This document shows, in pieces, positions 19,274 through 54,222 of a stretch of DNA of 64,000 bases; the first letter of the stretch is position 1; every line of letters starts with the position of its first letter. The DNA lies in NCBI GenBank assembly GCA_963743635.1, contig CAVUQO010000003.1, positions 128,001 to 192,000 on the forward strand, given 5' to 3'. The position numbers and the translations under genes were made by a program. The notes beneath the pieces were generated by a model. It saw only the letters and a list, made by a program, of their open reading frames with translations, was not told where the DNA came from and did not search any database. The stretch comes from Candidatus Babeliales bacterium. GTDB taxonomy: Bacteria > Babelota > Babeliae > Babelales > Vermiphilaceae.

Positions 19274-21748
19274 TTATTGAATGCGCGTTATGGCGATAGT
19301 GGCACATGTTGGAATAGTGGTGTTTGCAATAGTTGAGCTTGTTAATCTTGTGAGATAGCAAGCATTTGCCGCAGCAACTTGAAAACCTATTACTGCAGGC
19401 AAGCTCGTAATATTGACCAGTAATGCATTATCGATGTTTGAGATGCTTCTGAGATTAGTAGCAAATAATGTAGCGGTTGGGCGTATACTCGTCTGACTTC
19501 CTTTAATCTCGGCACCATTAAGCATAACGCGGCCAGCTGCTGTGGTTGGTGGCGCGCCTGAAGCAAGTTGCAACCCATAGCGATAATCTATTTCATAAAG
19601 GCCGGTATAGCTTGCCGAAAAACCGGTATATGATCCTGTGTTGCCCAAAGTACTCCAGCCATCAAGTACCGGAGCTGTCCAGAATCGCACCAATTGGTAC
19701 GTACTTGGGCATGCTATATTTTGATACCCGGTTGCATACGCGAATAGGCTACCGGTAAGTGAAGGGCCAGGATCCCCCGTATTACCAGTTGCTCCAGTAG
19801 CACCGGTATTTCCGGTCACACCAGTTGCACCAGTGTTTCCAGTATTACCTGTATTACCGGTATTACCAGTGTTTCCAGTATTACCTGTATTACCGGTATT
19901 ACCAGTGAGTCCAGTATTTCCGGTCACGCCAGTTGCACCCGTATTACCATCATTTCCAGTGTTCCCAGTATTACCCGTATTACCGGTATTACCAGTGAGT
20001 CCAGTATTTCCAGTGACGCCCGTATTGCCGGTGTTACCAGTGTTTCCAGTATTACCCGTATTACCGGTGTTGCCAGTGAGTCCGGTATTTCCGGTGACGC
20101 CAGTTGCACCCGTGTTACCATCATTACCAGTGTTCCCAGTATTTCCTGTATTACCCGTATTACCAGTGAGTCCGGTATTTCCAGTGACGCCCGTAGCTCC
20201 AGTGTTACCAGTGAGTCCAGTGTTACCAGTGTTACCAGTGTTTCCAGTATTACCTGTATTACCGGTATTACCAGTGAGTCCAGTATTTCCGGTCACGCCA
20301 GTTGCACCCGTGTTACCATCATTTCCAGTGTTACCAGTGTTTCCAGTATTTCCTGTATTACCCGTATTACCAGTGAGTCCGGTATTTCCAGTGACGCCCG
20401 TATTGCCGGTGTTACCAGTGTTCCCAGTATTTCCTGTATTACCAGTATTACCAGTGTTTCCAGTGAGTCCGGTATTTCCAGTCGTACCTGTTGCGCCTGT
20501 GGTTCCCGCCCCGGTTGCCCCAGTTGCGCCAGTATTGCCGGTGTTACCAGTGTTTCCAGTGAGTCCGGTATTTCCAGTCGTACCTGTTGCGCCTGTGGTT
20601 CCTGCCCCGGTTGCCCCAGTTGCGCCGGTATTACCGGTGTTTCCTGTATTACCCGTATTACCAGTAGATCCAGCCCCAGTTGCACCAGTAGCTCCTGTAT
20701 TTCCTGTTGCTCCGGTAGCTCCAGTTGTGCCGGTATTCCCAGTCGTACCTGTTGCGCCTGTGGTTCCTGCCCCGGTTGCCCCAGTTGCGCCAGTATTACC
20801 GGTGTTTCCTGTATTACCCGTATTGCCGGTAGATCCAGCCCCAGTTGCACCAGTCGCGCCGGTGACCCCCGTAGCCCCTGTAGCGCCTGTATTACCCGTT
20901 GAGCCTGTATTGCCAGTGTTTCCTGTTGCGCCAGTTATTCCCGTTGGGCCTGTAGGCCCACCAGATGGACCAGTTGCTCCTGTTGCGCCCGTTGGACCAG
21001 TTGTTCCAGCGCCGGTGTTTCCTGTATTTCCGGTTGCGCCCGTAGCTCCGGTATTTCCTGTTGCGCCAGTTATTCCCGTTGGGCCTGTAGGCCCACCAGA
21101 TGGACCAGTTGCTCCTGTTGCGCCAGTTGGACCAGTTGTTCCAGCACCGGTGTTTCCTGTATTTCCGGTGTTTCCAGTGGCGCCAGTATTACCAGTGTTG
21201 CCCGTTGGCCCTGTAGCGCCGTGCCCAGCTATACCATTGCTGATACACGCACTTTTTGCTTGTAAATTATTCACATACAGGGTTCCAAGTACGGTAAGAT
21301 TTTGAAATGTTGGGGATGCAGCTCGTACACCACTCGTTAACTCAAGAGCGAGTTGTTCGTCTTGCAATTGATCAAGATATGTTTTGAATATGTTTTCTAA
21401 AATACATACCGATTTTGTTTTTTGTTGTTTGATAATTTCAAGCACATTGATAATACCGCGCAATGCGCAACTTTCAGGAACTATCGTATATCCTTCTTGA
21501 ATTGCATCGATAAGATTTAAAAAATCGTTTGAATATGTATGGGATGGATAATGCTGCGGAGTCAAGATAAGCGCATTGCGTATGAGATCAGGAATTCGAA
21601 CAAATAGTTGGTCTGAATGCGCTTCAAGGAGCTCAATATCTTTTTGAGATAAGGAATTTAAAGGATCAACTTCATTGATCGCTGGGGCCGTGCATATGAT
21701 TTGAAGATTGAACCACATAAGGAGGGCAGCTAAATATTTACTTTTCAT
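19274..21748 (-). CDS. Collagen-like surface protein (Gly-X-Thr) with N-terminal pro-domain and C1q/BclA-like C-terminal domain
   Basis: About 490 aa of GNT/GAT/GLT/GVT triplets; C-terminal TGLYEIDY...[10 protein letters not shown]...IAITRIQ. Confidence 0.9.
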
Positions 21749-21915
21749 AATTCTCTCTTTTTTTTGATTCTTTTCATTTCTCTGTATAACGTTTTTTTGA
21801 ATTTGTCGATAGTTTTTTGCATACATTTTCAAAAAAAAGTGTACCTATATATAGCAAACAACAGAGTAAGAATGAACATTCGATAACGTTTACACTACAA
21901 TGAGGAGCCGTACAG

Positions 21916-52415: not shown

Positions 52416-52530
52416 CGATAGTGAAGAGTAGGAGCGAGTTTTTTTGAGATACTCAAAGGATTATTGTTATTTTTTGGAATGTTTTATAGCGTAGTAATAG
52501 TAGGATTTGCAAGAGACGTAAAGGTATGTA

Positions 52531-54222
52531 ATGAAAGTATCGAGAATACAACTATTATTGATTGTGATGGGTTTATGGGGAGTGGATGCGCAGGGGGTGG
52601 ATAATTCTCTGTATCAAACATGCGATGGAGATTTATACGGTAAAACATTCTTCTCATTCAGGCCGCAAGATTCAGATTCTTCACGCAGGATTTTGACATG
52701 GTTTAATGCGGATTATATAGCAAAACCTCACAAGCTTCAGGATAATACATGCTCGTGGCCTATAACGGGCCGATATCAGAACATGCGCTGCATGTTAGTG
52801 ATATCTCCTCAATACACGCGTTCTTTTGACACGAAGTGGTATTGCGCAATGGTTTTTCTTTAATGGGTGCGACCAAATGTCGGTCGGTATTCCCGATCAA
52901 TACGAAACATTTGATATTGATGGCAGCCAAATTGGATTAAGTTTGGGAACCATTACTGGTGAGTACGGGGAAATCGGTATCGCTTACGCCAGGTAAGATT
53001 GGCTCAGTATGGGCAAAGCCACTCATAGAAAACTTCATTATCGATCTTGATTTTTGGTACAATCTGAGCGATTGGCATGAAAATCTTTGGGCAAGAATTG
53101 AACTTCCCGTTGTATATATGAAAACTGATATGCACATGCGGGCATCAGGCCGTGGCGTACAAACGGACCCCTATCCTTATGGATTATTTTCACTTGATTT
53201 TACTAACACTCAGAATGCTTATGGCGATCAAATTTGTGATCAAACGCCAGTACCATATAATTCTATTCTCTGTGCGCTTGAGGGCAATCAAGGATGGGGC
53301 GCAGTTGAGCCCCTTAAATCGGGTAAATTTTCTACGCGGGAGCTCAGTAGATGGGGCGTAGCAGGGCTGCATTTCGATCTTGGATATGATTTTTATGATA
53401 GTAGGCCATGGTATGCAGCGGGTAGTTTGCATGTGGTGTTCCCAACTGGCACAAAGCCTAAAGGTGATTATGTGTTAGAACCGGTCATCGGCGCGAATAA
53501 ATCATGGCAACTGGGTGCAACGGTGATTGCCAATTACATTAAAGAATTGAGCAATAGCGAATTTGGCGTCTATTTTTACGCCGTAGGAACTCATCTTTTC
53601 AGATCAAAACAGGATCGCGTCTTTTCCTCTACTTGCGAATGGGCCAGGAAGCCAAGTTGTTCTTTTAAAGCAGTTTAATGTTGCCAATACAGAATTATTG
53701 AGTGCTACACGAGAGGCAAATATTTTTTGCGGAGAAACCAAAATTGGTGCATCGCTCATGTTTGATGGGTCATTAATGTTTCAATATAGTCGACAAGAAT
53801 TTGTATTAGATGCGGGATACAATTTCTGGGTACGCACGAAAGAAAGAAGCTCTAATAAAGTTTGCTTTAGAGAATTTGCTGATAATGAATTTGGTATTAA
53901 GGGCTCTATGCCCATGAAAGAAAATCAAGCGGTTGGATGTATTTATACACCATTGCAATGTCTTCCCGATTTGACGACTGAGCATTGCGTCACCATTGCG
54001 GGCGGTTCGCTTGAAGTTGATGATCCAGCAATTTTTATTCAAGCCTCTGACGTCAATTATGGATCAGCGCTTGCGCCAACTTGCATGTCGAATAAAGTAT
54101 TTGCCGCGATCGGTTATAAATCATCATGGTTTGTGTTGCTGTCTGGCGAAGCTGAATTCGGTATGAGCAATGCAGCGATAAACCAGTGGGGTATAATGTT
54201 AAAAATCGGCAAAGATTTTTAA
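52531..54222 (+). pseudogene. Frameshifted paralogue of the Cys-rich beta-barrel 26330-28024
   Basis: Three ORF pieces colinear with the paralogue; +1 insertions at about 52834 and 53628; ends MLKIGKDF. Confidence 0.8.

Follow-up and report, generated by a model that had tools for sequence, protein, structure and literature searches.

Glycosylated collagen-like surface fibres are already known from bacteria. BclA, which belongs with related collagen-like glycoproteins to the 'hairy nap' of the Bacillus/Clostridioides exosporium, has an N-terminal attachment domain, a collagen region of Gly-X-Thr triplets and a trimeric C-terminal knob, glycosyltransferase genes lie near its gene, and it is glycosylated in the cytoplasm of the mother cell. 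The subject of this work is a gene island of similar composition in a Candidatus Babeliales bacterium of the Dependentiae (TM6). It lies in a 64,000-nucleotide stretch of the assembly GCA_963743635.1 (contig CAVUQO010000003.1, here C3, positions 128001-192000), referred to below as the window. The source genome has 1.45 Mb in 3 contigs and is 85% complete by marker genes. The anatomy of the island, the export signals of its products, its modular fibre family and the conserved linkage of genes for fibres, transferases and a subfamily of outer-membrane barrels are documented here. On this basis we lean towards reading the island as a Babeliales-specific glycosylated extracellular fibre system, resembling a Gram-negative counterpart of the BclA nap.

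The likeness to BclA includes the general layout and, in relatives, the fibre tip: a true BclA_C domain (PF18573) ends 20 of 102 proteins that share the N-terminal domain of the island fibres. The differences are considerable. The island belongs to a cell of Gram-negative type and its products carry Sec signals throughout; its N-terminal domain is unrelated to that of BclA, much larger, and also fronts shafts that are not collagen. The four C-terminal knobs in the window have no Pfam match up to E 5, to BclA_C or otherwise, and the enzymes of the island bear export signals, whereas BclA is modified in the cytoplasm.

Scl1 and Scl2 of streptococci and Lcl of Legionella are likewise bacterial collagen-like surface adhesins. 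Identity of the island collagen with Scl or Lcl was considered using NCBIfam and rejected, as the matches arise through the repeats only and lie far below the cut-offs (198 of 325 and 169 of 500 bits); the island protein also has neither the LPXTG anchor nor the Lcl C-terminal domain. A literature search, which subscription journals lay outside, found no relevant papers on collagen-like proteins of Dependentiae/TM6 or on glycosyltransferases of Babeliales. The available text of the Chromulinavorax, TM6 comparative-genomics and Babela papers contains no collagen or fibre terms, and supplement gene tables could list such proteins. Within the searched literature the system is therefore undescribed, as had been proposed; what is new is the N-terminal domain family and possibly an outer-membrane partner.

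Fibre genes and their common N-terminal domain

Seven fibre genes are present in the island (Table 1), one for a collagen and six for fibre or β-helix proteins, and on this count the open reading frames (ORFs) and Pfam agree with the initial annotation of the window. The collagen-like protein consists of a signal, the common N-terminal domain (N-domain), a Cys linker, 149 Gly-X-Y triplets (those in runs of at least six, the longest run having 82) and a C-terminal knob of ~160 residues that is common to other N-domain proteins. Thr occupies position Y in 137 of the 149 triplets (92%), Lys is absent, and there are 7 Pro residues. Thr is also the predominant Y residue across the N-domain collagen family. 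The 1539-residue giant fibre is composed of a signal, the N-domain, shaft repeats of ~150 residues, a pectate-lyase-like β-helix and a C-terminal knob; in its split paralogue, the piece 33367-34029 matches DUF1565 and Pect-lyase in Pfam. Residues 313-406 of the 726-residue fibre match the tail spike gp124 of a phage of Milano type (8fqc, E 2.5e-5). The C-terminal 190 residues of the tail-fibre-like proteins (47760-52168) match phrog_14820 (E 4e-6), and short stretches of this trio are common to proteins bearing Peptidase_S74, C1q or K1-lyase_C.

The N-domain follows the signal peptide in six of the seven fibre genes, being missing from 49366-50682 in the alignment, which bears out the earlier statement that most fibres share a pro-domain. 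A profile of 23 sequences and 113 positions matched 217 cluster representatives at E≤1e-3, 59 of them at E≤1e-10, among 1.84 billion proteins; among the 150 matches listed, the match almost always covered residues ~20-160. The domain was detected in 51 of 261 Dependentiae genomes, all of the window's own order, and a narrower profile of six sequences found it in 21 of 261. Its AlphaFold model (predicted local distance difference test, pLDDT, 87.1; predicted template-modelling score, pTM, 0.75) shows helices packed into a compact bundle, along with two short strands. Foldseek revealed nothing at E≤1e-3 in the PDB or BFVD, and only generic bundles resemble the model. The best score in the Atlas was 0.82, where small phage proteins, T4_gp9_10_N and Fibritin_C are taken as leads only. 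A relationship to the N-terminal domain of DnaI, raised by a profile search of the PDB (E 4.9e-5, 26 bits), was unsupported by the fold searches and is treated as chance or helical bias. As modelled, the N-domain is a real and new family of ~110 residues without a known fold relative.

Partner domains were scored in 102 N-domain proteins drawn from the 150 matches listed, each 250-1100 residues long and all within 50,000 residues in total. Besides BclA_C, they included Collagen (33 proteins), Peptidase_S74 (10), K1-lyase_C (3) and DUF1565 (1). Peptidase_S74 is an intramolecular chaperone of phage tail spikes. Since such varied partners follow it, the N-domain is best viewed as a common N-terminal module for trimeric fibres, the shafts and tips of which are freely swapped. 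In phage tail fibres and in BclA, the conserved N-terminal end is the attached one.

The junction that links the N-domain to the shaft combines an acidic spacer and, in many cases, 'TR' with a basic cluster and the Cys-containing motif C.L.V..CL...L.V.G. Of 130 proteins, 74 have a dibasic cluster in this stretch, compared with 59 of 783 control windows of the same proteins, and 106 have Cys there, compared with 142 of 783. The basic cluster, initially read as a site of Arg-specific processing, is conserved, and cleavage at it is putative. Trimerisation assisted by the N-domain, also proposed initially, is likewise putative: co-folding of residues 27-200 of the 518-residue fibre as a homotrimer, in three copies, scored 0.14 against a mark of 0.42, which counts neither for nor against it. 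Lipoprotein anchoring of the fibres was dropped as a candidate, there being no consistent lipobox in the sequences.

In the 438-residue fibre, the signal peptide and a 'DNLS..KR' junction are kept and the whole N-domain is gone. The protein reads as a natural in-frame deletion variant. The annotated start of its gene overlaps the start region of the neighbouring gene.

The barrel, the transferases and their genomic linkage

Two paralogous Cys-rich barrels with MLKIGKDF ends had been noted in the island, and both ends were seen; the copy at 26324-28024 is intact and that at 52531-54222 is in pieces in this assembly. The intact protein has 91 homologues in a large protein database, and every name given among them is 'hypothetical protein'. 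The AlphaFold model, built on 48 homologues, has a pLDDT of 90.7 and a pTM of 0.86. The closest structural match was FapF (score 21.2, root-mean-square deviation 2.5 Å, 246 of 276 residues), followed by the COG4313 channel (4RL8; 21.0), the autotransporter β-domains of EspP, Hbp and NalP (18.6-20.9), the KdgM/NanC porins (17-19) and intimin/invasin (about 17). Foldseek also ranked FapF first (E 5e-11). According to the model, the protein is a 12-stranded FapF/autotransporter-like channel, and about half of it is extra, made up of hairpins of great length and an N-terminus rich in Cys. A short helix (residues 69-76), within the aligned range and with no long helix ahead, comes after a near-invariant GKTFF..RPQD motif; model residues 23-29 and 82-86 are of low confidence. 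Neither Pfam, NCBIfam nor PHROG gave a match, and a profile search of PDB sequences returned nothing at E 10. PF13557 was not found on the window barrel at E 0.01 and matched one of 48 relatives at 5.3e-5; in the Atlas, apart from a Phenol_MetA_deg cluster at 0.93, only clusters without a name came up.

FapF of Pseudomonas has been described as a trimeric, plugged 12-stranded barrel that passes unfolded, Sec-exported amyloid subunits (PDB 5O65; PMC5557850). The island barrel shares 12 strands with FapF and COG4313 in its model and has no detectable sequence similarity to either. It is twice as long as FapF, with very long extracellular hairpins and with the Cys-rich N-terminus in place of a coiled coil; the island has no FapA-E-like partners, and the substrates would be trimeric fibres, not amyloid. 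It differs from type V systems (EspP, Hbp, NalP; intimin/invasin), in which barrel and passenger form one chain, as here barrel and fibres are separate polypeptides: no passenger is attached to the barrel, and each fibre terminates in a soluble knob. It differs from TpsB in having 12 strands, not the 16 of Omp85. A Pfam scan of 29 window proteins found no autotransporter, POTRA, ShlB, Omp85, usher or periplasmic chaperone family, which sets the island apart from two-partner and chaperone-usher systems and agrees with the initial annotation, where such partners and YadA-type anchors were reported as absent.

The genome contains 21 ORFs of the barrel family at ~16 loci. A tandem array of 13 paralogues, ending ...QWGVWFKIGTSYN, occupies C3:690-718 kb (L030 = 689001-699000), and two more lie at C3:735-738 kb. 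Four fibre genes (509, 353, 165 and 640 residues), one with an N-domain and one with DUF1565, stand at the end of the array. The subfamily of the window barrel, at E≤1e-40, is present in 11 of 261 genomes. Another family has it in 5 of 8 genomes and also contains the best matches to the window barrel (50% and 43% identity), whereas in the window's own family, apart from the source genome, only 1 of 79 genomes has it; this discordant distribution suggests exchange of the barrel between lineages.

Among the enzymes, the 1100-residue glycosyltransferase is encoded divergently from the collagen gene, and its four modules occur as separate genes at C2:63-70 kb. The 297-residue protein, the gene of which is 3.4 kb away from that of the collagen, shows homology to the human procollagen galactosyltransferase COLGALT1 (GLT25D1), in a match that covers chain residues 13-265 and the GT1 domain only. 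It also matches the accessory domain of LH3 (PLOD3; E 6.6e-6) and, weakly, mimivirus R699 (E 0.034). Like the animal enzymes, which work in the lumen of the endoplasmic reticulum, it bears a signal. It differs from COLGALT1 in having a GT1-type domain only, and the island collagen offers no lysine or hydroxylysine acceptor. GT1 of COLGALT1 is reported to bind Mn2+ and UDP-Gal but to be structural, the catalytic site being in GT2 (bioRxiv 10.1101/2024.06.21.600124). Since the matched domain is structural in the human enzyme, the match indicates kinship with collagen-modifying enzymes, not activity. The family of the 297-residue protein comprises 1024 proteins at E≤1e-10. It includes members in Protochlamydia and Parachlamydiaceae at ~60% identity and is thus common to amoeba symbionts, which suggests gene exchange among them. 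Some relatives are fused to S-adenosylmethionine (SAM) methyltransferase domains.

The two tandem GT2-TPR enzymes match PF00535 and TPR_12/TPR_17 below the Pfam cut-offs. GmaR of Listeria is a flagellin O-GlcNAc transferase that glycosylates a surface filament protein. The GT2-TPR enzymes share its architecture of GT2 and TPR parts and resemble it in sequence over the catalytic domain (PDB 22ao; E 1.8e-4 over residues 24-214). The similarity is weak, and unlike GmaR the window enzymes bear an N-terminal signal or anchor. Further right, the enzymes at 57567-62994 are all signal-anchored and have paralogues in a second glycosylation cluster (C2:60-71 kb). The claim that the transferases are exported, with more of them at 57-63 kb, therefore holds, an N-terminal signal-type segment being present on all those at 21916-31731 and 57567-62994. 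O-glycosylation of the fibres, also proposed initially, is made plausible by the conserved linkage to GmaR-like and collagen-transferase-like enzymes.

The second glycosylation cluster (L029, C2:59-77 kb) encodes two sulfotransferases, five GT2 proteins, two STELLO-type transferases, an FkbM methyltransferase, an RXYLT1-like transferase, and an enzyme of the GDP-mannose-dehydratase/epimerase type with an N-terminal hydrophobic anchor. Nearly all products of this cluster carry N-terminal signals.

Linkage was surveyed in 20-kb stretches around the N-domain genes of 14 other genomes. In genome G233 (L013), propeller, collagen, multi-module transferase (as two genes) and GT2-TPR genes follow the order of the window, and the multi-module transferase is divergent from the collagen gene there and in G092 likewise. 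Four types of immunoglobulin (Ig)-like protein stand beside an N-domain collagen gene in G215 (L016), and G214 has tandem Ig proteins of group A, one with a fused collagen tail. In G092, G241 and G224, propeller, Ig, β-helix and collagen parts are fused in various orders. In G246 (L018, C1:1-20000) there are at least 12 tandem collagen genes for products of ~300-450 residues, only some of which are detected by the N-domain profile.

GT2-TPR genes are present in 89 of 261 genomes, being found in 39 of the 51 with an N-domain and in 50 of the 210 others. The nearest pair of GT2-TPR and N-domain genes is within 5 kb in 18 of the 39, within 15 kb in 23, and on different contigs in 10. Genes for the 297-residue transferase occur in 36 of 261 genomes, and in 12, judged by eye from coordinates, one lies within 3.5 kb of a GT2-TPR gene. 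Nine loci encode barrels at least 34% identical to the window barrel: the window itself contributes two, and the other seven come from G091, G092, G094 and G097, making five genomes of three families. The neighbour is a collagen or fibre gene at six of these loci and a propeller gene, in a cluster of propeller, Ig and β-helix genes, at one; the remaining two adjoin transferase genes (GT2-TPR, or a module of the multi-module transferase 1.3 kb away). Some of the barrel-adjacent fibres have the linker motif and no N-domain. At 10 loci of distant barrel paralogues (≤32% identity), no fibre, propeller or transferase neighbour was flagged by the three detectors used, namely BLAST against window proteins, the N-domain hidden Markov model and a Gly-X-Y count. 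Co-occurrence and clustering elsewhere had been put forward initially as the test of a common system, and the families do co-occur and cluster in other Babeliales genomes.

Extent of the island, further genes and assembly

The island had been delimited as 35 kb. It is larger, spanning ~45 kb from 17982, where the DUF5122 propeller gene forms its left end, to at least 62994. Directly to the left is the housekeeping gene for alanine racemase (16707-17858), and from there to at least 62994 there are 22 genes, all 22 products of which begin with a basic and then hydrophobic segment of the Sec signal or signal-anchor type, in line with the Sec export proposed at first. Pfam families on the island are Collagen, Big_13 in five proteins, DUF5122, and GT2, TPR, GT47/RXYLT1-like and FkbM in the enzymes; the barrel and five of the fibres have no Pfam match. 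The island DNA occurs in peat and soil metagenomes, an independent soil metagenome containing 0.91 of the sampled words of the window, and those homologues of window proteins that bear a name are labelled Candidatus Babeliales. The sequencing runs listed as containing this DNA include none of RNA.

Five Ig-like proteins in two paralogue groups had been recognised, and comparison upholds this: the group A proteins (28111 and 44413) are 43% identical, and the group B proteins (41195, 42033 and 43285) are 45-57% identical to each other. The C-terminal domain of the protein at 44413-45312 is also present on an N-domain fibre (P0105). In relatives, Ig-like proteins occur fused to collagen, and an end domain is common to them and a fibre; on this ground they resemble small fibres, and a role as small adhesins within the same coat suits them better than that of the adaptors first suggested.

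Table 1. Positions of the island genes in the window and the main basis of each assignment.
Feature	Position	Strand	Basis
Secreted DUF5122 β-propeller protein, 459 aa	17982-19361	-	PF17164, E 1.2e-27
Collagen-like fibre, 852 aa	19274-21832	-	PF01391, E 3.8e-62
Four-module signal-anchored glycosyltransferase, 1100 aa	21916-25218	+	GT2 PF00535, E 3.2e-16; Glyco_tranf_2_4; SpsA-like, E 4.3e-6
Signal-bearing GT-A protein, 297 aa	25243-26136	+	COLGALT1, E 2.1e-28
Cys-rich 12-stranded outer-membrane barrel (as modelled), 566 aa, 13 Cys, intact	26324-28024	+	AlphaFold model
Secreted Ig-like protein, group A, 304 aa	28111-29025	-	Big_13; paralogue of 44413-45312
Two tandem signal-anchored GT2-TPR enzymes, 397 and 395 aa	29345-31731	+	GT2, TPR
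Second giant fibre gene, four ORFs in the assembly	31734-36250	-	Paralogue of 36277-40896, 59-90% identical piecewise
Giant fibre, 1539 aa	36277-40896	-	N-domain alignment, paralogue comparison
Three secreted Ig-like proteins, group B, 213, 321 and 351 aa	41195-44340	+	Big_13, Big_6, Invasin_D3
Secreted Ig-like protein, group A, 299 aa	44413-45312	-	Pfam
Fibre, 726 aa	45334-47514	-	Signal, N-domain, RGRRCKK junction, shaft, β-helix, knob
Tail-fibre-like protein, 558 aa	47760-49436	-	66-72% identical to two neighbouring paralogues
Tail-fibre-like protein without N-domain, 438 aa	49366-50682	-	66-72% identical to two neighbouring paralogues
Tail-fibre-like protein, 518 aa	50612-52168	-	66-72% identical to two neighbouring paralogues
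Second barrel copy, at least three ORF pieces in the assembly	52531-54222	+	68-73% identical to 26324-28024
Exported thioredoxin-fold protein with Cys-containing amphipathic repeats, 978 aa	54467-57403	+	PF00085, E 2.8e-15; signal
GT47/RXYLT1-like protein, 614 aa; 299-aa protein; FkbM + Methyltransf_24 protein, 571 aa; GT47-like protein, 328 aa	57567-62994		Pfam

It is uncertain whether the thioredoxin-fold protein belongs to the fibre system. Its thioredoxin domain is followed by ~850 residues of repeats with weak synuclein/apolipoprotein-like matches, and a shorter paralogue is encoded at C3:317865. Possibly the 978-residue protein handles disulfides or associates with the envelope, as part of a Cys-rich surface. 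To the left of the island, WD40-type propeller proteins (699 and 434 residues) and two lactonase-like seven-bladed propellers (469 and 442 residues) are encoded at 320-6201 and 12909-16679.

The second giant fibre gene shows a 2-bp insertion and a 1-bp deletion relative to its paralogue, and its reading as a pseudogene on that ground was withdrawn in part, as short-read contigs contradict the window sequence at five further single-base sites. Such contigs came from two metagenomes, one of which may be the source sample. A contig with 3 substitutions from the window over 32670-34003 carries extra single bases at 32956, 32960, 33148, 33159 and 33164. When N was placed at these five sites and at two other indel sites, 1507 codons with one internal stop resulted. 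Because the short-read contigs carry extra bases, the fragmentation is at least partly assembly error or strain difference, and the window assembly probably contains indel errors that make false frameshifts. The indels +G at 34059 and -2 at 35835 are ambiguous, since contigs of the paralogue can map there.

Proposed display of the fibres and alternative explanations

The favoured reading, a glycosylated fibre coat, would work as follows. The chains would cross the inner membrane by Sec, and their Thr-rich shafts would be O-glycosylated outside the cytoplasm by the signal-anchored transferases, with nucleotide sugars that are probably host-derived. The fibres would reach the cell surface, or be held there, with the help of the barrel, acting either as a pore that threads unfolded chains, by the logic of FapF and autotransporters, or as an anchor that docks the N-domain. 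The conserved N-domain would then be proximal to the cell and the variable knobs would face outward for binding to the protist host. Further small surface adhesins of the same coat would be provided by the Ig-like and propeller proteins. The genome encodes two Omp85 proteins (outside the window) and TolC, which indicate an outer membrane, and in addition two secretins that belong to a type II/IV-pilus system. A search of the whole genome, which is 85% complete, gave no match to LpxC. This fits an outer membrane that lacks classical lipopolysaccharide and agrees with the loss of lipopolysaccharide synthesis reported in Babeliales (PMC4776705), so that a glycoprotein coat could be the outermost layer of the infectious cell.

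Several points weigh against this reading. The expression of the fibres, their surface location and their glycans are predictions. The human COLGALT1 domain matched by the 297-residue protein reportedly has no catalytic role, and the collagen contains no Lys that could become hydroxylysine. GT2-TPR enzymes occur in 50 genomes without a detected N-domain, and the synteny counts overstate independence because the genomes are related. The secretins give the fibres another exit, and general porins or variable major outer-membrane proteins typically form families like that of the barrel, with its ~16 loci and 13-gene array. The barrel subfamily is present in 11 genomes and the N-domain fibres in 51; therefore most fibre-bearing genomes manage without the barrel. 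Nucleotide sugars are normally not available outside the cytoplasm, and a folded triple helix cannot pass a 12-stranded pore.

The explanation that best survives beside the favoured one, although we consider it somewhat unlikely, is an island of surface proteins that has no dedicated channel. In this case the barrel would be one of many general porins or variable major outer-membrane proteins of the organism, the fibres would leave the periplasm folded by type II secretion, and co-location would reflect only a hot spot of rapidly evolving envelope genes. The large barrel family, the two secretins and the 51 fibre-bearing genomes against 11 with the barrel subfamily all fit it. The collagen-like adhesin Lcl of Legionella does leave the periplasm folded by type II secretion. 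Moreover, type II components were reported in all TM6 genomes studied (PMC4776705). It accounts less well for the neighbourhoods, as nine of nine subfamily loci adjoin fibre, propeller or transferase genes compared with none of the 10 distant paralogue loci, and the second fibre cluster of the genome also adjoins barrel genes. The best structural matches of the modelled barrel also point the other way, being polypeptide-translocating barrels (FapF, EspP, Hbp), tied with COG4313. Of the dedicated barrel proposed by the initial annotation, the association with fibre and transferase genes thus stands, and uniqueness does not, given the ~16 loci in the genome.

A bolder form of the coat hypothesis is a 'split inverse autotransporter', a new outer-membrane display route combined with Golgi-like glycosylation in the periplasm, and this we regard as unlikely. 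After Sec export, the helical N-domain would stay in the periplasm as a stopper or anchor, with the acidic/basic/Cys junction sitting in the pore of the FapF-like 12-stranded barrel. The shaft would be threaded out unfolded, and three neighbouring chains would zip into a collagen or tail-fibre trimer outside. Decoration would take place in a 'Golgi-like' periplasm by signal-anchored glycosyl-, methyl- and sulfotransferases of eukaryote type, which would draw on nucleotide sugars entering by diffusion from the cytosol of the host, and the coat would replace the lost lipopolysaccharide layer.

It is less probable still that the island encodes secreted effectors and not a coat, the transferases being released into the host cell or vacuole to modify host molecules while the fibre, Ig and propeller proteins bind the host. 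Export signals are indeed present on every enzyme, including the methyltransferases and the nucleotide-sugar dehydratase at C2:61 kb, and would suit enzymes acting where the nucleotide sugars and SAM of the host exist. The ~60% identity of the 297-residue transferase to proteins of Protochlamydia and Parachlamydiaceae is in keeping with this explanation. Against it speak the tight and conserved linkage to Thr-rich fibre genes, the conserved N-terminal end with a variable C-terminal knob, an arrangement seen in BclA, phage tail fibres and other anchored fibres, and the BclA_C and Peptidase_S74 partners, which are structural-fibre modules. Dependentiae have been reported to secrete many effectors (PMC6561590), which counts in favour of this explanation.

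A decayed prophage or tailocin tail-fibre cassette, an origin that the initial annotation had named as a possible objection and that is suggested by the phage-like shaft and tip modules (gp124, phrog_14820) and by the Peptidase_S74 and K1-lyase_C domains of relatives, is very improbable, since no capsid, portal, terminase, baseplate, tail-tube or integrase family was found on the 29 window proteins in Pfam and no tRNA in the window, two fibres had no tblastn match at E≤1e-3 among 50,697 phage records, no relative of the 518-residue fibre was found in IMG/VR, and all fibres carry Sec signals, unlike virion proteins, which are assembled in the cytoplasm.

Read as a glycosylated fibre coat, the island bears on a gap in the biology of the Dependentiae, a widespread phylum of protist parasites, namely their mode of attachment and entry. 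Glycosylated modular fibres with variable tips are a candidate for host recognition and host range. Such a coat would have counterparts in the BclA nap of spores and in the fibrils, likewise glycosylated, of giant viruses, as a convergent trick for uptake by phagocytes. It also raises the questions of whether a stand-alone FapF/autotransporter-like barrel can export or anchor trimeric fibres, and whether nucleotide sugars supplied by the host can sustain the glycosylation of proteins outside the bacterial cytoplasm.

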